Assembly: GCA_965203055.1 (NCBI GenBank)
Contig: OZ241863.1
Coordinates: forward strand, 3,904,001-3,968,000
Length of the DNA stretch: 64,000 nucleotides
Direction: 5' to 3'
Source: Spirochaetia bacterium
GTDB taxonomy: Bacteria; Spirochaetota; Spirochaetia; SZUA-6; Bin103
Position 1 is the first letter of the stretch, and each line of letters begins with the position of its first letter. The notes under the pieces are model-generated. The model was given only the letters and a program-made list of their open reading frames with translations. It was not told where the DNA came from and ran no database searches. This document shows, one piece after another, positions 7,093 to 33,939 of this stretch. Both the position numbers and the translations under genes were made by a program.

Positions 7093-8067
7093 ATGAACGA
7101 CCCTTCGTACAAGCGCCTGCTCAACCACCGGCGCATCATCAAGGACCTGCTGCTCGGCTTCATCGCCCCGCTGCGCCCGCCCGGTTGGGCTGACTCGCTC
7201 GACTTCGACTCCCTGCGCGACGGCCCGACCGAGCAAATCACCGATGACCTGCGCCGGCGCTTCAGCGACGTCGTCTGGTCCATCGACCGGCGCGCCGCAG
7301 GCGATCGCGCGCAGACCGTGCAGGTAGTGATCGAGCACCAGTCATCGGTGGACCACTCGATGCCGCTGCGGTTCCTCAACTACAGCAGCCTGCACTACCA
7401 GCGGAAGTACCGCGACCACCAGTGGCGCAAGGGCGACACTGCCGACCTGGTGCTGCACGTCGTGCTGTACAACGGCAGCGCCCGCTGGAACGCCCCGCAG
7501 TCGCTGGCGGAGCTGGTGCCGAGGTGGGAACACGACGGTCCGGCGCAGCTCGCGCTGAGCTATGACGTGGTTGATCTGGTGGCGCTGGCAGCGGATGACC
7601 TGCCGCGCCCCAACCTGATAACCTGGATGGCGGACGTGGAGCGCAGCCGGCGCGCCGGCGAGCTGGCGGAGCGGGTGCGGGAGTTGGGACAGTGGCTCGC
7701 CGCAGAGGACGAGCCGGAACTGACGAAGAGTTTCGACCTGTGGCTCGGCGCCATGACCCGGAAGTGGGGCGTCAAGTTGCCGTCGATTCGCGACCACGAG
7801 GAGGCACGCGCAGTGTTCTTGGAGAAGATCGATCGCTGGGAAGCTGAGTTCCTGCAAGAGGGACGTCAGCAAGGCCGCCAGGAGGGCCGGTTGGAAGGCC
7901 GCCAGGAGGGCCGCCAGGAAGGCCGGTTGGAAACTATCGAAGGGTTCCTGCGAGCGGGCATCGGGTGGCCGGTGATCGAATCCGCCACCGGCATCGACGA
8001 GCACACCTACCGCACCCTCAAACACGACTCCGCCAACGGCATGGAGCCGGCCGCGCCGCCGCGTTAA
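7093..8067 (+). CDS. Rpn/YhgA-like recombination-promoting nuclease (PD-(D/E)XK; RpnL)
   Basis: GGAG RBS, NDPSYKRLL, LDFDSL, RFSDVVW, VIEHQSSVDHSMPLRFLNY, VVLYNG..W, C-terminal EGRQ repeats. Confidence 0.9.
   Translation: MNDPSYKRLLNHRRIIKDLLLGFIAPLRPPGWADSLDFDSLRDGPTEQITDDLRRRFSDVVWSIDRRAAGDRAQTVQVVIEHQSSVDHSMPLRFLNYSSLHYQRKYRDHQWRKGDTADLVLHVVLYNGSARWNAPQSLAELVPRWEHDGPAQLALSYDVVDLVALAADDLPRPNLITWMADVERSRRAGELAERVRELGQWLAAEDEPELTKSFDLWLGAMTRKWGVKLPSIRDHEEARAVFLEKIDRWEAEFLQEGRQQGRQEGRLEGRQEGRQEGRLETIEGFLRAGIGWPVIESATGIDEHTYRTLKHDSANGMEPAAPPR
7813..8067 (+). CDS. Putative in-frame internal small protein (RpnS-like, 84 aa)
   Basis: GAGGAGG at 7798-7804, 8 nt before in-frame GTG 7813, just before the EGRQ-repeat domain. 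Confidence 0.6.
   Translation: MFLEKIDRWEAEFLQEGRQQGRQEGRLEGRQEGRQEGRLETIEGFLRAGIGWPVIESATGIDEHTYRTLKHDSANGMEPAAPPR
7858..7929 (+). repeat. 12-bp tandem coding repeats (EGRQ/QGRQ/EGRL, 6 units)
   Basis: Six imperfect 12-nt units; the second copy (10258-10305) has four. Confidence 0.8.
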
Positions 8068-8291: not shown

Positions 8292-9656
8292 TCACCGGTC
8301 TACCGGCGCCTGACCATCCTCGCCGGGGCGCCCGAATCCGGCGCCGGCGTGGCGGTAGCGGTGATGGGCGGCGCACAGCAGCCGGAGATTGTTCGGCTCG
8401 GCGGCGCCGCCGCAGGCATACGGCACGACGTGATCGATCTGCAGCAGGTGTTGGGAGCCGCAGCGGCGCCCGCTGGTGCGGTCCACGTAGCGGCAGCGGC
8501 CCCCGTCGCGCCGCCAGACCTCGCGCTTGACCGCCGCCGGGATGGCGCGGCCGGTCGCGCCGCCGGCCTTCGCTGCCGAAGTCTCGGTCCGCGCCGGCGG
8601 CGCAGCCCGCGCCACGCACGCCACCGCAGCCGGCCGGCCGAGGCGCCGCGTCTTCGGCGCCGAAGCTGCGTCGCCCGCCGGCTTCGCTGCCGAAGTGTCC
8701 GAGCGGTCAGCGGCTGCGTCTCCCGGCTGCGCCGGCGCCTGAGCCGATACCTTCGCCGCCGAAGGAGCGGCGCGGTCCGCGCTGGCCTCCTGCTTCGCTG
8801 CCGGGGCAGCGCCGCGAGCCGAGGCTGCCTGCGTCTTCGCCGCCGAAGTCTGCTCGGCGCCTTTGGCCGGCGCGGCGCGCCGCCCGCGCGGCGGCCGGGC
8901 CGGGTCGTGACGGTCGAGCCCTTCCCGCACCAGCCGCCCCATGAGCTGCCCCATCGTCAGGTGCGGATCGACGTGGGACAGGAGGCCCTTGAGCCGCTCC
9001 AAGCCGCGCCGGCACTCATCGTCGATCACCGCCTTGAGCTCCCAGCGCCCGCCGCCCAGCGGCCGCACCCGATCCGCCGGCGCCGCCAGCTCCGGGTCCA
9101 CCTCGGCCAGCAACTGCATCACCTGCCGGCTGCTCTTGCCGGACGCCTGCTCCACCAGCTCCCGCCGCGCCTCCGGGTCCAGCACCGGCGCCGGCGCCGG
9201 CTTCCGCTCCGCCGGCCGCGGCGGCGCCGAGCCGTTCTGCGACTGGGCGGCAGCCCCGCACCCGACACCGCCCGGCGCGCTACGCGCCGCCCGTTCCTTC
9301 TTGCGCTCCTGACGGTCGAAGGCATGCTGCAACTGCGCGGCCGCGTTCAGCGTCATCGTGCCATTCTGCAGGCGTTCGCGCACGCCCTCGACGTCCGCGC
9401 AGAGCCGCATCGCCTTGATGCGCCGCCACGCTGCGGCGTCGCTGTAACCCAGTTCGCGCACCGCGTAGTCGAACAGGCTGGAGAACCCGCGGCGCAGATA
9501 CAGGCGCCGCTTCTGAATCTCGCGCAGGTGGTCGATGACGACCACTTCGAGATGGTGTTCGATGCCGGACAGTTCCTTGGTCCGCTCCAGCAGGCGGTCG
9601 TCTGAGAGGGCGGAAACGGTAGTGGTGACGGCCTCGTCGGAAGCCTGATCGTTCAT
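8292..9656 (-). CDS. DUF222-like / HNH endonuclease
   Basis: N-terminal LSDDRLL...HLREIQKRRLYLRRGFSSLFDY...LGYSDAAAWRRI; C-terminal IPAAVKREVWRRDGGRC...C...LQIDHVVP..GG....NLRLLCAAHH. Confidence 0.9.
   Translation of the reverse strand: MNDQASDEAVTTTVSALSDDRLLERTKELSGIEHHLEVVVIDHLREIQKRRLYLRRGFSSLFDYAVRELGYSDAAAWRRIKAMRLCADVEGVRERLQNGTMTLNAAAQLQHAFDRQERKKERAARSAPGGVGCGAAAQSQNGSAPPRPAERKPAPAPVLDPEARRELVEQASGKSSRQVMQLLAEVDPELAAPADRVRPLGGGRWELKAVIDDECRRGLERLKGLLSHVDPHLTMGQLMGRLVREGLDRHDPARPPRGRRAAPAKGAEQTSAAKTQAASARGAAPAAKQEASADRAAPSAAKVSAQAPAQPGDAAADRSDTSAAKPAGDAASAPKTRRLGRPAAVACVARAAPPARTETSAAKAGGATGRAIPAAVKREVWRRDGGRCRYVDRTSGRRCGSQHLLQIDHVVPYACGGAAEPNNLRLLCAAHHRYRHAGAGFGRPGEDGQAPVDR
8568..8848. 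repeat. Six copies of a 14-bp palindromic repeat CTTCG(C/G)(T/C)GCCGAAG inside the HNH linker
   Basis: Copies at 8568, 8652 (perfect palindrome), 8682, 8751, 8793 (degenerate) and 8835; they encode SAAK/SAPK/PAAK. Confidence 0.75.
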
Positions 9657-9999: not shown

Positions 10000-10447
10000 C
10001 CGCGCCCGAACCTGATATAACCTGGATGGCGGACGTGGAGCGCAGCCGGCGCGCCGGGGAGCTGGCGGAGCGGGTGCGGGAGTTGGGACAGTGGCTCGCC
10101 GCAGAGGACGAGCCGGAACTGACGAAGAGTTTCGACCTGTGGCTCGGCGCCATGACCCGGAAGTGGGGCGTCAAGTTGCCGTCGATTCGCGACCACGAGG
10201 AGGCACGCGCAGTGTTCTTGGAGAAGATCGATCGCTGGGAAGCTGAGTTCCTGCAAGAAGGCCGTCAGCAGGGCCGCCAGCAGGGCCGCCAGGAAGGCCG
10301 GTTGGAAACTATCGAAGGGTTCCTGCGAGCGGGCATCGGGTGGCCGGTCATCGAATCCGCCACCGGCATCGACGAGCGCACCTACCGCACCCTCAAACAC
10401 GACGCCGCCAACGGCACGGAGCCGGCCGCGCCGCGTTAGCTTCCCGC
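10000..10447 (+). repeat. Near-identical direct copy of the 3' part of the rpn gene (~7603-8075)
   Basis: Direct comparison: differs by a TA insertion near 10017-10020, two fewer 12-bp units, a 3-bp deletion and a few SNPs. Confidence 0.92.
10212..10439 (+). CDS. Stand-alone RpnS-like small protein (75 aa; alternative ATG 10026)
   Basis: Retains GAGGAGG plus GTG and an intact C-terminal domain; nuclease domain absent. Confidence 0.55.
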   Translation: MFLEKIDRWEAEFLQEGRQQGRQQGRQEGRLETIEGFLRAGIGWPVIESATGIDERTYRTLKHDAANGTEPAAPR

Positions 10448-26069: not shown

Positions 26070-28352
<2,283 letters not shown>

Positions 28353-28532
28353 TGGTGCCTCGCAGTGAAGTTCGCCCACGCTGTCCGCCCTCCCGTGGCA
28401 CTGCGCGCAGCGCGGGAGGCGCCGGAACAGGAGCATGGCAGCAGGGGTGTGGGGTTCGCATCTAAGGTAGTGCCGGCGCGTGGTTGGCGTCAAACCAACG
28501 AAGTAGCGGCAAAGTAGCGGCAAGGGCACGAA

Positions 28533-29045
28533 TTGACGGATTCCGGCCCGGCCCCTATGGTGCGCCGGGTGCGGGCACGGATCACGTTGCGCTCCAATCC
28601 GCGCGTGCTGATCCCCGTCGCCGCGGCGGCGGGGCTGGTGGCGGGAGCGGTACTGCTGGCGGCGCTGGTGCAGATCGTAGCGGGGGGCTTGGCGCTGCTG
28701 CTGACCGGTTACTTCGGCTACCGCATCGTGCGCTTCGTCAGCAAGCAGCTCGCCAGTTACGTCGCCGCCGACGCCGGCGGGGTGACGATTTGCGAGTACG
28801 GCGAGGAGACCCATCACTACCCGTGGGAGCAGGTTACCTGCGCCGGGCACGCCCGCGCCGCGGACGGCGGCGAGCTGCTCTACGTGTACGTGGAACGCGA
28901 CGACCGCCTGGTCACCATCTCCCCGGAGTTCGAGAACTTCCGGCCGCTGCGGGGCGAGTTGCAGCGCTACCTCCCCGCCGCCGACCTGGAGCTGGCGGCC
29001 GGCGAGTCGCTGGCCGACCGGCTGCGCCGGCGCCTCTCGACGTAA
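28533..29045 (+). CDS. Hypothetical membrane protein (two TM helices plus PH-like domain)
   Basis: Coding-like ORF with two hydrophobic segments then YPWEQV; start uncertain. Confidence 0.6.
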
Positions 29046-29055
29046 GGAGGAGCGG

Positions 29056-32000
29056 ATGTCGCTTGAAGAGCGGGCGAAGGAGTGGCCGGCGCAGTGGCTG
29101 CGGGAAGGCCGCGCGCAGGATACGCGGTTGATCGAGCGGTGGCTGCCGATCGCGGCGCTTGGGATCGAGAGTATCCGCGAGCGGACGCCGATGACCCCGT
29201 TCCCGGCGCCGAACCGGTTGCACGTGTGGTGGGCGCGGCGGCCGTTGGTGGCGTCGCGGGCGGCGGTGCTGGCGTCGCTGCTGCCGGCGGACGCGGACCG
29301 GGATAGGTTTCTGCATGTGCTCGGCATCCACGGCGACCCGGTGGCCACGCGCCGCCGGATCGACGCCGCCAAGAGATCGGGGAACCGATTCAAGGGGCAG
29401 GCTTACAGCTATCCGCGCGCGTTTGGTTACGCGCCGGGGCAAACGGATCAGGAGTGGTTGCGTACCGCTCTCGAGACGCCGCTGAGTGAGTGCAACATCC
29501 TCGATCCTGCGGCAGGAGGCGGCAGCATCCCCTTCGAGACGATACGGCTCGGAGCGGCGGCTATCGCCAACGATCTCAATCCGGTGTCGGCGCTGATAAT
29601 GGATGCTTCGGTGAAGTGGCCTTCCTCATTCGGCTCGGATCTCCACCGCGAGTTCGATGACCTGTCGAAGCGGTTCATTGCGGCGAGAGAAGATCGCCTT
29701 GCCCCGTACTTCCCCAAGGAGGAAGGAACCAGGCCAAGACCGGATGATGTCGTCAATGCCATAGCCACCAACTTTCTGTGGGCGCGGACGGTGAGTTGTC
29801 CGTATTGCGGGGGGCGGGTGCCGCTGGCGCCGAACTGGCGGTTGGCGCCGGACGGGACGGGGGTGCGGCTGGAACCGCAGCCCGGCGGTGATTCAAGTAA
29901 TCCGAGTGCGCCGGGTGAGGCGCCGGGAGCGCCGGGGCGGGTGTGCCGGTTCGAGGTGGTGCATTCGGCGCGGGAGCAGGCGGCGGGGACGGTGGCACGC
30001 GGGGCGGGCAGCTGCCCGTGGCCGGATTGCGGGCGGGTGATCTCGGGCGACGAGATCAAGGCGCAGGCGCAGGCCGGAGCGATGGGCGAGCAACTGTTCG
30101 CGGTGGTCTACAAGGAACGGGTGAACACGTATACCAAGACCGGCCGCCGGCGCGAGAAGTGGGTGCGCCGCTACCGCGCGCCGCGCCCGGAAGACGACAA
30201 CGCCGCCGAGATAGCGGCGCGGCTGGCGGAGAAGCTGCCGGAGTGGGAGGCGTTCGACCTGGTGCCAAGCGAGCGGTTCTCGGAGGAGAGCAACGACGAT
30301 CGCCCGATCCAGTACGGCATGCCGCGCTGGCGGGACCTGTTCTCCCCGCGGCAGCTCCTGTGCCACGGCACCGGCGTAGAGGTGTTCCGCGAGTTGCTGG
30401 AAGCCGACCGCGCCGCCGGCGCGCTGACCCCGCTGCGCCAGGCCGCCTACGGCTTCCTGGCCCTCTCGCTCGACAAGACCCGTGACTACAACTCCCGCAT
30501 GACTCGCTGGCACGTAGGGCGCGAAGTAATGGTCAATACCTTCGACCGGCACGACTTCTCCTTCAAGTGGTCCTACGCCGAGATGGCGCCGCTGATCACC
30601 GGCCTGGGCTACGACTGGGCCATCCGCCAGACCGCCAAGTGCATCCGGGAACTGGTCGCCCTGGTGCGTCCCGGCGCCGGCGGCTCCGGTGCTCTAGGAG
30701 ATCTGTTCCCTGAGTCGGGCGCGCGGCCCGCCGTCACCATCACCTGCAAGCCGGGCGACAACCTCGACCATATCCCCGACGGCAGCGTCGACGCCGTGGT
30801 CATGGACCCGCCCTACTACGACAACGTGATGTACGCCGAGCTGTCCGACTTCTTCTACGTCTGGCTCAAGCGCACCGCCGGCCACGTCTTTCCCGCGCTG
30901 TTCCGCCGCCGCCTCACCGACAAGGAGAACGAGGCGGTCGCCAATCCCGCCCGGTTCCGCGGCCAGCCGGGCGCGCAGGCGCTCGCCGGGCGCGACTACC
31001 AGGAGCGGATGGCGAGCATCTTCGCCGAGATGCGCCGCGTGCTGAAATCCGACGGGGTGATGACGCTGATGTTCACCCACAAGGCGGCCGGCGCCTGGGA
31101 CGCGCTGACCACCGGGCTGATGGAGGCCGGCTTCGCGATCACCGCGTCATGGCCGATCAACACCGAGGCGGAGGGCAGCCTGCACGTGCGCAACAAGGCG
31201 GCTGCCAACAGCACCATCTTCCTGGCCTGCCGCCCGCGCACCGCGGCGCGCGAAGCGGACGAGACCCCGTACTACTGGGAAGACATCGAGCCTCGGGTAG
31301 CGGGCGCGGTGCGCGCCCGGGTGGCGGAGTATCAGGCGGCCGGCATCCGCGGGGTCGATCTCTACCTGGCCTGCTTCGGTCCTGCCCTGGAAGAATTCTC
31401 GCGCCACTGGCCGCTGGCGCGCGGCACGCCGCGCCCGGCGCCGCAGGAACGGCGGCGGGGCCGACGGCAGCCGGAGTTGGAGGCGGAGCGGGACCCCTAC
31501 GCGGTGAGCCCGGAAGACGTGCTGGACACCGCCCGGCGGGAGGTGAAGCGCTGGCGGCTGGAGCAGTTGACGCAGCGGCGGGCGGACGCCGACCTGGACC
31601 CTGCCACCGCCTTCTTCGTGCTGGCGTGGGACGCCTTCGAGGCGCCGGTGTTCGCCTACGACGAGGCGCTGCGGCTGGCGCGCGCGGTGGGCGTCGACCT
31701 GGAGCGGGAGGTGGTGGGCCGGCTGGCGGAGAAGCGCGGCAGCGACCTGCGGCTGTGGGACTCGACGCGGCGCGCCGCCGGCGGAGCGCTGGGGCCGCCC
31801 GACGGGGCGCGCGGCATGATCGACGCCGTGCACCACGCCGCCAACCTGGCGCGCACCCGCTCGCTCGACGATGCCCGCAAGCTGCTCGACGAGAAGCTGG
31901 GGACGCGCGAGGGGGCGTTCCTGACCGCGCTGGAAGCGGTGCTGGAAGTGCTGCCGGTCAGCAAGAGGTGGACCGGGATCGACCTGCCGGGAGAGGCGGC

Positions 32001-32109
32001 GGCCGCGGGCAGCGACTTCGAGGCGCTCTACCATCTGGCGCGCCTGGCGTACGGCGACCGGATCGACGAACCGAAGCAGCTCCGGCTATGGCAGGAGGAC
32101 GCCGCCTGA
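29056..32109 (+). CDS. DUF1156 family adenine-specific DNA methyltransferase with zinc ribbon
   Basis: [13 protein letters not shown] (DUF1156), motif [15 protein letters not shown] and CPWPDC, motif IV DPPYYDN. Confidence 0.9.
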
Positions 32110-32288
32110 CCCTGCTCGCCGGAGACCGGTTCCTCCACGAAGAAGACCGCCGCACGCGGCGTCGGAGCCGGCCCTGCGGGCAGCTTGCCGACACGTTGGT
32201 TGGTGCTCCCGACAGCCCGGCACAGCCCGGCAGGGCGGCGGTAGCGGACTTGCCGCGCCCGGAGTATGGTTGGCGTGGAGGATCACCG

Positions 32289-33098
32289 ATGGCTTACGCG
32301 GCAGGTGCGCCAGGCACGGCACTCGCTCCGGTTGCTCCGGTCGAGATCGACTACCCCAGTTCGGACGGTAAGCCTTTGGCGGAAAGCTATTTTCAACTCA
32401 TCCCTCTGGTCTACGCCTTCGACGCGCTGCGGCGCCACTACGCCCACCGCGACGACGTGTTCGTAGCGGCCGACCTGCTGATCTACTACCAGAGGAGAAC
32501 CAAGAAGTCGGTTGCGCCGGACGTGTTCGTGGTGTTCGGCGCGGAGAATCGACCGCGCCACTCCTACCTGTTGTGGCAGGAACCGAAGGGGCCGGACTTC
32601 GTGCTGGAGGTCACCTCGGCGAGCACCCAGGACAAGGACCTGGGGCCGAAGCGAGAGACGTACCGGCGGTTGGGAGTGCGGGAGTACTGGCAATACGACC
32701 CGACGGGGGACTATCTGAAACCGCCGTTGCAGGGGCTGGAGCTGATCGGGGGAAGGTACCAGCGGCTGCCGGCGGAGGAGTTGGCGGACGGGACGCTGCG
32801 GCTGGAGAGCGAGGTGCTGGGGCTGGAAGTGCGTCAGGAAGAGGAGAGGCTGCGGTTCTACGATCCGGCGACAGGGAGCTATCTGCTGTCGTCGGACGAA
32901 GAACAACAGGGGCGGCTGCGGGAAGCCGCCGCCCGTCGCAAAGCGGAAGCCGCTCAGCGCCAGACGGAAGCGCGGCTCCACGACGAAGCCGCCGCCCGCC
33001 GCCAGGCGGAGGCCGCCCAGAGCCAAGCGGAAGCGCGCATCGCCGCGCTTGAGGCGCTGCTCCGCGAGCGGGGCGAGAGCGACACGCCAAGCAGATAA
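32289..33098 (+). CDS. Uma2 family (DUF820) PD-(D/E)XK endonuclease with coiled-coil tail
   Basis: GGAGG RBS; YPSSDGKPLAES, VAPDVFVVFG, PDFVLEVTS.ST...D...K...Y..LGVREYW.YDP. Confidence 0.9.
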   Translation: MAYAAGAPGTALAPVAPVEIDYPSSDGKPLAESYFQLIPLVYAFDALRRHYAHRDDVFVAADLLIYYQRRTKKSVAPDVFVVFGAENRPRHSYLLWQEPKGPDFVLEVTSASTQDKDLGPKRETYRRLGVREYWQYDPTGDYLKPPLQGLELIGGRYQRLPAEELADGTLRLESEVLGLEVRQEEERLRFYDPATGSYLLSSDEEQQGRLREAAARRKAEAAQRQTEARLHDEAAARRQAEAAQSQAEARIAALEALLRERGESDTPSR

Positions 33099-33180: not shown

Positions 33181-33939
33181 TCAGGGAGCGGCGCCGCCGC
33201 GTTTCCAGGGGGCGCGGCGCAGCACCGGGGCGTAGGCGTCATCTTCCAGGCTGATGCGCAGCGCCTGCAGCTCGGCGGCGCTCGGCTCGCGCGCCTGGAA
33301 TTCGAGGCGCCCGGCATCTTCCACCAGCGCCGCCGGCGTCTGTTCGGCTCCTTCCCCCATCTCCAGGACCGCGGCCGCGGCCAGTGACTGCACCAGGTTG
33401 GTCTTTTCCATGGTCAGGCGCCGGCCATACAGATCGGGCGCGCCGACGTAGTCGCGTAGCGCCAGAAAGCCGCAATGGGCGATGCCGCGGCCTACCACGC
33501 CCCAGTTCAGCGGAATACCGCCGCTGTCGGCGATTACCACGCCGAGCCGCGCGCGGCCCGCGGTGCGCTCCCGCAGCCGCCGCCACAGGTGGTTGGCGCT
33601 CCGCTGCGGGTCGCGCGGCCACAACGCCAGCCGGCCGGCGCCGTTGGACTGATCGATACCGGCGTTGACGAACATCCAGTTGCCCTTGATCGTAAGCATG
33701 ATGTCGTAACGCGAGGCGTGCGGCTCGAGGTACCACTCCGCTTCGGCGCGCACCAGCTCGTGCAGTTGCCGGCGGTCGCCGGCGCGCCCGGTCAGCCGGC
33801 CCTCGGCGATGCTGACCACCTTGGAAGCCACCACCACCACGCAACGGTCGGGCAACGGCAGCGGCAGGCTGGCGGCCAGCTCCTGCGCCAGGTCGCTGCC
33901 GGGCCGGATCAGCGGAGTGCGGATCGCGGTGACGGTCAC
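33181..33939 (-). CDS. CofE-family gamma-glutamyl ligase, resembling the folate-associated CT611/FolC2 type
   Basis: ASKVVSIAEGR, NAGIDQSN, GVVIADS, DYVGAPDLYGRRL, MGEGAEQTP, EDDAYAP. Confidence 0.78.
   Translation of the reverse strand: MTVTAIRTPLIRPGSDLAQELAASLPLPLPDRCVVVVASKVVSIAEGRLTGRAGDRRQLHELVRAEAEWYLEPHASRYDIMLTIKGNWMFVNAGIDQSNGAGRLALWPRDPQRSANHLWRRLRERTAGRARLGVVIADSGGIPLNWGVVGRGIAHCGFLALRDYVGAPDLYGRRLTMEKTNLVQSLAAAAVLEMGEGAEQTPAALVEDAGRLEFQAREPSAAELQALRISLEDDAYAPVLRRAPWKRGGAAP

Follow-up and report, generated by a model that had tools for sequence, protein, structure and literature searches.

An Rpn-derived predicted translation start at the head of a DUF1156 methyltransferase gene in a Spirochaetia bacterium

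Internal starts of rpn genes and the methyltransferase locus

Small RpnS proteins are translated from an internal ribosome-binding site (RBS) and start codon within rpn genes, and the long first helix of RpnS forms the dimer interface, according to the main text of Zhong et al. (2023, PMC10400941), on which the statements about RpnS biology below are based. Hypervariable repeats of four residues begin 8-20 residues past the initiating Met, and the number of these repeats sets RpnL-RpnS specificity. Independent RpnS-coding copies, named RpnSs, arise by recombination beside rpn genes, with RpnL suggested as a possible initiator. RpnA also stimulates RecA-independent recombination, for which nuclease cleavage followed by template switching was proposed in the part of the study drawn on here (Kingston, Ponkratz and Raleigh 2017, PMC5350276). 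Methyltransferases of the DUF1156 family are known from systems that pair them with a PLD-SNF2 helicase (DUF1156_MTase/PLD_Helicase in PADLOC), to which Hma (HmaB/HmaA) and DISARM (DrmMI/DrmD) are related. The subject of this report is a DUF1156 methyltransferase gene that begins with a piece of an rpn gene, found in a 64,000-nucleotide (nt) stretch of a Spirochaetia genome (contig OZ241863.1, positions 3,904,001 to 3,968,000), referred to below as the window.

The chimera comes from a marine or sponge-associated bacterium with a genome of 4.56 Mb, and the G+C content of the window is 70%. The features on which the analysis turns are as follows, in window coordinates.

28533-29045, + strand: ORF170, a conserved resident gene in single copy (28 of the 41 genomes searched have one match each, among them 8 of the 10 of the genus)
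29044-29119, + strand: Rpn-derived graft, consisting of a Shine-Dalgarno (SD) sequence AAGGAGGAG, an ATG at 29056 and 20 codons (eight in-genome matches, in Rpn paralogs)
29056-32109, + strand: DUF1156 N6-adenine methyltransferase open reading frame (ORF), 1017 codons
29119-32109, + strand: methyltransferase body, from ancestral codon 3 (D22 of 1017 amino acids) to the stop (PF06634, E 4.3e-15)
7093-8067, + strand: the window's own Rpn gene, of a different subfamily from the donor (PF04754, E 3e-18)

The SD sequence AAGGAGGAG occupies 29044-29052, 3 nt upstream of the ATG at 29056, with its AGGAGG core ending 5 nt upstream, and it translates in frame as K-E-E-R-M. Going upstream from 29056 to the preceding stop, the frame holds no further ATG, GTG or TTG. 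The encoded protein opens with a 21-residue tag, which is followed directly by DTRLIE-type DUF1156 sequence. A preliminary description of this DNA, made from the letters alone, had given the same account of the SD, the in-frame KEERM and the DTRLIE junction, and that account is accurate.

The graft resembles the start of RpnS and RpnSs in that it comprises an SD, an internal start and the opening part of the long first helix and stops where the repeats start, but it differs from both in consisting of 21 residues alone, with neither repeats nor helical bundle, at the head of an unrelated protein of 1017 amino acids (PMC10400941). The tag is thus a fragment of RpnS and not an RpnS, as homology stops at EGR-AQ and DTRLIE is directly next. 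The enzyme body matches the DUF1156 methyltransferase-helicase systems, and a sister locus in the same genome has the helicase; the window copy differs from those systems in lacking a helicase, in carrying a swapped segment at amino acids 100-250 and in its foreign start. By its domain matches the methyltransferase is a DUF1156 member, but no complete Hma, DISARM or methyltransferase-helicase system is recognizable at the locus. An RpnS start heading another gene was found neither by a term search of the main text of Zhong et al. (its supplementary figures aside), nor in the accompanying commentary (PMC10400984), nor in literature searches, in which these two 2023 PNAS items were the sole relevant results.

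Donor, breakpoints and distribution of the graft

The preliminary description had aligned the tag with the Rpn gene of the window, and while this likeness is real, it is weak, with 10 of 24 residues identical and E 0.001 for a single pair by BLASTP. It had also proposed a search for a donor rpn paralog by BLASTN, and positions 29030-29130 searched in this way against the genome itself located eight further copies of the graft (29045-29117/29119), all outside the window, which share 81-89% of their nucleotides with it across 70-75 nt (E 7e-20 to 3.7e-14). All eight lie within Rpn paralog sequence, seven in open frames of 360-413 codons and one in a 214-codon remnant. A Pfam scan for PF04754 was run on one of these paralogs, C1:258562-259644, which gave a match above the cut-off (E 1.1e-21) and holds the module at codons 244-268 of 360; the same copy, with its match at genome position 259291, is the best protein match to the tag (21 of 25 residues, E 3e-12). 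Judged by these matches, the donor is an Rpn subfamily other than that of the window's Rpn gene, present eight times elsewhere in the genome.

The donor segment reads LEEVR-M-TLEDRVKEWPAQWMREGREQ, just ahead of (EQGL/EQGR)n repeats, and the consensus of the donor copies is (K/E)E(I/V)R-M-TLE(D/E)RVKEWPAQW(M/L)REGREQ, directly followed by EQGL, AQGL or EQGR units. Either GGAGGAGG or AAGGAG stands 5 nt upstream of the ATG in all eight donor copies, and GGAGGAG is found 5-9 nt upstream of an in-frame ATG or GTG in each of the four Rpn subfamilies examined. In the window's own Rpn gene, GAGGAGG with a GTG at 7813 is the internal start candidate, ahead of (QEGR)n repeats. Within the donor subfamily, predicted RpnS parts range from 92 to 145 amino acids in length and differ almost solely in the number of four-residue units (3 to ~15), which begin at about residue 17-21; of their first 21 residues, 17 are invariant across nine aligned copies and the rest show conservative changes. 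At the level of sequence the donor segment is built like an internal RpnS start, and RpnS is probably translated separately in this organism as well.

An AlphaFold2 model of the donor RpnS, with a mean predicted local distance difference test score (pLDDT) of 85, has one long helix at residues 3-50 followed by three short helices. No match at E<=0.001 was returned by Foldseek against the PDB, a wide fold search with VIA-align gave generic helical bundles alone (best Z 8.7), and a PDB sequence search gave one chance ribosomal match; the RpnA-S chain was retrieved by none of the three. When a 97-residue donor RpnS served as query in an exhaustive search without a profile, 1024 relatives of the RpnS-like domain emerged at E<=0.001. 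Among the best 150 of these, the equivalent Met is the protein start in 19, which are stand-alone small proteins or first units of tandem arrays.

The direction of transfer was from Rpn to the methyltransferase, because the peptide is carried by none of 142 DUF1156 homologues, while the RpnS-like domain has its 1024 homologues. In these 142 proteins, which are all the DUF1156 homologues fetched, the motif E-W-P-x-Q-W is absent from the first 200 residues; the preliminary description had asked whether orthologues lack the peptide, and they do.

The breakpoints are sharp. A BLASTN comparison of 28200-29500 with the genome found 28200-29043 to be unique, 29044/5-29117/9 to match Rpn paralogs, and the sequence from 29119 onward to match two methyltransferase paralogs (94.7% and 85% identity). 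The methyltransferase paralogs and the orthologues in related genomes read ATG-xxx-GAC/GAT-ACx-CGG-CTG-ATC-GAG, and the DNA upstream of them is unrelated to the window and to one another. Since they keep ATG-xxx ahead of the DTRLIE codons and have unrelated upstream DNA, what the graft displaced was the native ATG, the codon after it and the DNA upstream. Across the right joint, the sequence of the window is GAAGGCCGCG-CGCAGG-ATACG and that of the donors is GAAGGCCGCG-AGCAAGGCCTTG-CGCAGG-GACTT. The donor continues through CGCAGG once one 12-nt repeat unit is removed by allowing a gap, which places the right joint within the first repeat units, after CAG-G. About 1 nt is common to both parents there, as is characteristic of illegitimate joining. 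On the left side, the alignment of ORF170 with its orthologues extends to ~29036 (LRRRL); the orthologues run 8-15 codons further, where the window has S-T-stop and then the SD. The acidic C-terminal tail of ORF170 is thereby shortened, and its new stop, TAA at 29043-29045, overlaps the SD of the graft, so that 10 nt separate it from the ATG at 29056.

Public runs from eight studies contain the stretch, and runs from four of these studies (four runs) were examined. One assembled contig (X2) spans 28700-29158 with no differences and another (X9) spans the same interval with 8 differences in 459 nt; contigs from two further runs (X3 and X4) span 28700-29105, and a second X4 contig spans 29084-29151. 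One of the examined runs may be the genome's own sample, and X9 is clearly a separate strain. The joint is real, species-specific and older than the split between the X9 strain and that of the window. Three of the X9 differences lie within the graft (29059 T>A, 29064 T>G and 29118 G>A), and each is the base found in most Rpn donor copies; either the window strain has drifted from a donor-like ancestor or gene conversion with Rpn paralogs has taken place. The X9 variant alters residue 2 of the tag. A misassembled junction, which the preliminary description had named as a possible undoing of its claim, is excluded by these contigs of four studies, which bridge one or both joints and include a strain with eight differences. 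Its central proposal, that the methyltransferase had received an RBS and start codon of RpnS type together with the opening of the first helix, stands on the DNA homology to Rpn paralogs, the sharp breakpoints and the independent contigs.

Outside the species the joint was not found. A junction-spanning 140-nt query detected no joint in 40 relatives and gave solely Rpn-side or methyltransferase-side matches, and a 765-nt query likewise gave no joint in any of the family's 23 other genomes. The degenerate pattern EWPAQW..EGR with DTRLIERW within 1-11 codons had no occurrence in GTDB representative genomes or in JGI metagenome contigs, and a DNA scan with all Rpn loci gave no second SD-plus-start graft on a non-Rpn gene in the genome itself. 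Several candidates were read and set aside. Apparent junction matches in two relatives (G010 at 4086862 and G011 at 126701) have no Rpn module, and the other outside matches of the Rpn-locus scan are copies of a 60-nt dispersed repeat or look-alikes of the repeat arrays. Nor were three long proteins from the database (P0248, P0205 and P0206) counted as fusions: they begin with an RpnS-like part, but Pfam finds no domain in them and their tails resemble run-on GC-rich frames. The dispersed repeat is a GC-rich 60-nt element that stands at 8830-8889 in the window and at about 50 other sites in the genome, 86-98% identical, with one copy abutting an Rpn locus.

The methyltransferase and explanations of its foreign start

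A homologue search of 5.8 billion proteins with residues 1-260 of the methyltransferase gave 4894 matches, of which the best 120 were read. The (D/x)(T/x)RLIE motif lies in the first 60 residues of 116 of these 120 and starts within the first five residues in 97, with M-x-DTRLIE as the commonest start. When the same 5.8 billion proteins were searched with residues 1-40, 24 of 32 candidates were scored and none of them covered the tag. Other, unrelated extensions precede the motif in 19 of the 120 (up to ~20 residues in those read), so the family evidently tolerates additional N-terminal residues.

The enzyme matches PF06634 from residue 29 (E 4.3e-15; 56 bits, where the cut-off is 24) and shows weaker similarity to N6 methyltransferases further along; its best PADLOC models are HmaB (E 4e-66) and DUF1156_MTase. 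In a 38-sequence alignment, the S-adenosylmethionine-binding D150-P-x-A-G-G-G (150-156) and the catalytic D584-P-P-Y (584-587) are invariant, and D22 and R24 are nearly so. From amino acid 260 to the end, the ratio of nonsynonymous to synonymous divergence (dN/dS) is 0.24 and 0.15 against the two paralogs, at dS ~0.13, as pairwise values that blend both lineages; with ratios this low, purifying selection has acted on the methyltransferase during the greater part of its history after duplication. The full-length model of the protein has a pLDDT of 67.5 and falls below 50 over residues 1-62, and the tag appears in it as a helix at pLDDT 34-39 that holds no packing information.

Homology to the methyltransferase paralogs spans 29119-32127, ending 18 nt past the stop. 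In the sister copy (genome 1128170) a PLD and SNF2 helicase gene is next, its start overlapping the methyltransferase stop; the window copy has no such partner at its locus and is followed by a Uma2 gene and then cofE instead. Identity to the sister copy is 94-100% in most 50-column blocks (74% in one) and 40-56% over residues 100-250 (window 29350-29800), a drop which suggests that paralogs have swapped a specificity region. The metagenomic protein P0002 matches this segment at 94-96%. In related genomes the methyltransferase is present in as many as five copies. Rpn genes lie near both sister copies of the present genome: one has two of them directly upstream, the other has two at an upstream distance of 6-10 kb, and these genes belong to subfamilies that differ from the donor's.

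The probable explanation, favored with fair though far from full confidence, is a natural chimera in which an Rpn-derived start was joined to the methyltransferase by illegitimate recombination, probably by accident and with the tag as a passenger. Illegitimate (non-homologous) recombination would have fused a 75-nt piece of an Rpn gene, which comprises the SD, the internal RpnS ATG and the 20 codons that open the long first helix and stops at the first hypervariable-repeat unit, to a DUF1156 methyltransferase paralog at codon 3. This copy no longer has its own promoter region, RBS, ATG or PLD-SNF2 partner, and the graft would have supplied a working translation start to a start-less cassette. 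The grafted AAGGAGGAG and ATG are the only strong translation start predicted for the methyltransferase. The notion of a portable expression cassette, raised in the preliminary description, fits this anatomy, in which the native ATG is gone and the graft holds the only strong SD and ATG, but it remains interpretation. Transcription would most likely come from ORF170 by read-through, with re-initiation at the graft, and ORF170 and the methyltransferase would then be co-transcribed. This is the simplest route of expression, because a search of the gap between the two genes found no terminator-like and no promoter-like site and because the ORF170 stop overlaps the SD. The predicted mRNA fold around the methyltransferase start is close to that of shuffled sequences (z -0.5). 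As makers of the joint, breakage or slippage in the 12-nt array and Rpn nuclease cleavage with template switching are the candidates, and either the instability of the Rpn repeats or Rpn nuclease activity may have been at work. The 1-nt shared right joint fits illegitimate joining and the genome is rich in Rpn genes, in agreement with the Rpn-promoted recombination proposed in the part of Kingston et al. (PMC5350276) drawn on here, yet slippage or breakage in the array explains the joint equally well and the Rpn enzyme is only a candidate for its maker. The 21-residue tag is most likely a tolerated passenger, since repeats and bundle are both missing from it, DUF1156 enzymes accept additional residues at the N-terminus and a single species has the fusion.

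Several points weigh against this account. The use of ATG 29056 as the start is presumed from the SD and its spacing, and an in-frame TTG at 29128 with a weak upstream AGGA is a possible alternative start that would drop D22 and R24. No finding points to an Rpn nuclease as the maker of the joint, and the blending of two lineages in the dN/dS values counts here as well. The left breakpoint lies exactly at the SD, which is equally expected under selection for a cassette or by chance. The best in-genome donors differ from the graft at 8-9 of 70-73 nt, which means either an old event or a donor outside the sequences sampled; selection on the tag would likewise leave an old event in frame.

A functional role of the tag, by which the methyltransferase docks on, titrates or is co-regulated with Rpn-A long and short proteins and its presence is coupled to Rpn toxin control, appears improbable. 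It would draw on the tag matching the N-terminal stretch of the helix at the RpnS dimer interface of E. coli RpnA (PMC10400941), modeled as helix 3-50 in the donor RpnS, on the retention of the frame in two strains differing at 8 of 459 nt, on the Rpn genes adjoining both other methyltransferase copies, and on the at least 47 near-full-length Rpn-like genes of the genome as possible partners. The graft nevertheless lacks the four-residue repeats, whose number sets specificity, and the helical bundle; it is limited to one species, its second residue is altered in the strain variant, and its helix is of low confidence in the methyltransferase model. A complex prediction of the donor RpnS (113 amino acids) with methyltransferase residues 1-130 scored 0.00 against a mark of 0.34 and speaks neither way. 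The guard-type form of the idea, in which the SD, ATG and half helix are a selected tag that draws an orphan methyltransferase into Rpn-A complexes or translational control and the loss or blockage of the methyltransferase is sensed by an Rpn nuclease, is a shade less probable again; if it were true, methylation and abortive defence would be coupled through the tag in guard fashion. Such a coupling to Rpn neutralization had been put forward in the preliminary description, and it finds no positive evidence here, with the graft stopping before the repeats and bundle that the main text of Zhong et al. ties to RpnS dimerization and specificity.

It is also unlikely, if less so than a working tag and as the chief rival to the favored account, that the graft is an untranslated scar, with initiation downstream at TTG 29128 or with a silent, decaying orphan copy, and that the 21 in-frame codons are luck. 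A random joint falls in frame one time in three and stops are rare in 21 GC-rich codons; the partner helicase is absent from the locus, a TAG interrupts one of the sister copies of the genome, and none of the 23 runs listed for the stretch is RNA. Against this stand the near-ideal AAGGAGGAG and ATG (core AGGAGG 5 nt upstream), compared with a TTG that has AGGA alone and would cost the conserved D-T-R, the intact 1017-codon frame with its dN/dS of 0.15-0.24, and the conservation of joint and frame in the diverged X9 strain. Chance resemblance, a normal family N-terminus or an assembly chimera can be regarded as ruled out: the weak match of the tag to the window's Rpn gene would have allowed the first, but the eight far stronger genome copies, the absence of the peptide from the homologues and the contigs of four separate studies oppose all three.

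The chimera offers a clean and dated natural case in which an internal start is reused as the start of an unrelated gene. This internal start belongs to the gene-within-a-gene kind that drives RpnS synthesis in E. coli rpn genes, and sequence features suggest that it is used in the present genome as well. The right breakpoint, at the first 12-nt repeat unit, supports the suggestion in the main text of Zhong et al. that rpn genes break and rejoin there. For annotation, the locus indicates that a foreign-looking 5′ end can be a true start. In functional terms the locus is of modest weight, except if the tag turns out to bind Rpn proteins.

The insertion site and other RpnS-like sequences of the genome

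Two further genes complete the locus.

32289-33098, + strand: Uma2-family endonuclease gene, second gene of the 4.1-kb insert (PF05685, E 7e-19; PADLOC PDC-S03)
33181-33939, - strand: cofE-like gene (F420-0:gamma-glutamyl ligase), right flank of the insertion hotspot (PF01996, E 6e-34)

In four of eight same-genus relatives, ORF170 is directly followed by the convergent cofE-like gene, and in the other four (G010, G001, G003 and G005) the spacer holds a different insert of 1.8 kb. The present genome has ~4.1 kb in this spacer, made up of the graft, the methyltransferase and the Uma2 gene, the last of which is a multi-copy element with more than 20 related copies in the genome. Such varied cargo indicates that the ORF170/cofE spacer behaves as a hotspot for defence-like inserts. 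The insert of G010 (L031 1518-3270) holds a 400-codon ATPase-like ORF starting MIKRIYVDNYKCL and a 208-codon ORF.

Rpn sequences are abundant in the genome, with at least 47 non-overlapping near-full-length matches (at least 250 amino acids) and 43 partial ones in 4.56 Mb by tblastn with five Rpn queries. A count of 26 rpn copies in one Bacillus thuringiensis genome is quoted as high in the main text of Zhong et al. (2023). Examples stand at C1:795867-798882, 814813-826790 and 1713918-1717703, and several copies form tandem arrays. Downstream of the window's own Rpn gene by 2 kb, at 10026-10439 on the + strand, lies a stand-alone copy of its last ~140 codons, 90% identical and with one repeat unit fewer, which resembles the RpnSs genes of Zhong et al. 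(PMC10400941) as their main text presents them.

Five frames combine a Uma2-like N-terminal part with an RpnS-like C-terminal domain (C1:1071689-1072747, 1115869-1116921, 2460197-2461198, 2960973-2962466 and 2976191-2977771), the latter consisting of a short repeat run and an ERALLxRxAAxKF helical part. Pfam confirmed the Uma2 part (PF05685, E 3e-9) in one of the two such frames scanned. These frames imply that an RpnS-type domain is common to two nuclease families here. Together with the graft and with tandem RpnS arrays, they suggest that RpnS-coding pieces have been shuffled widely. Arrays of this kind, with two to four RpnS-like domains in a single frame, are found at C1:2007122-2008165 and 4371667-4372185 and in the database proteins P0145-P0147, P0153 and P0158; the first unit of the array at C1:2007122 starts at LEEVRR-M, with an SD sequence, GGAGGAAG, just upstream.

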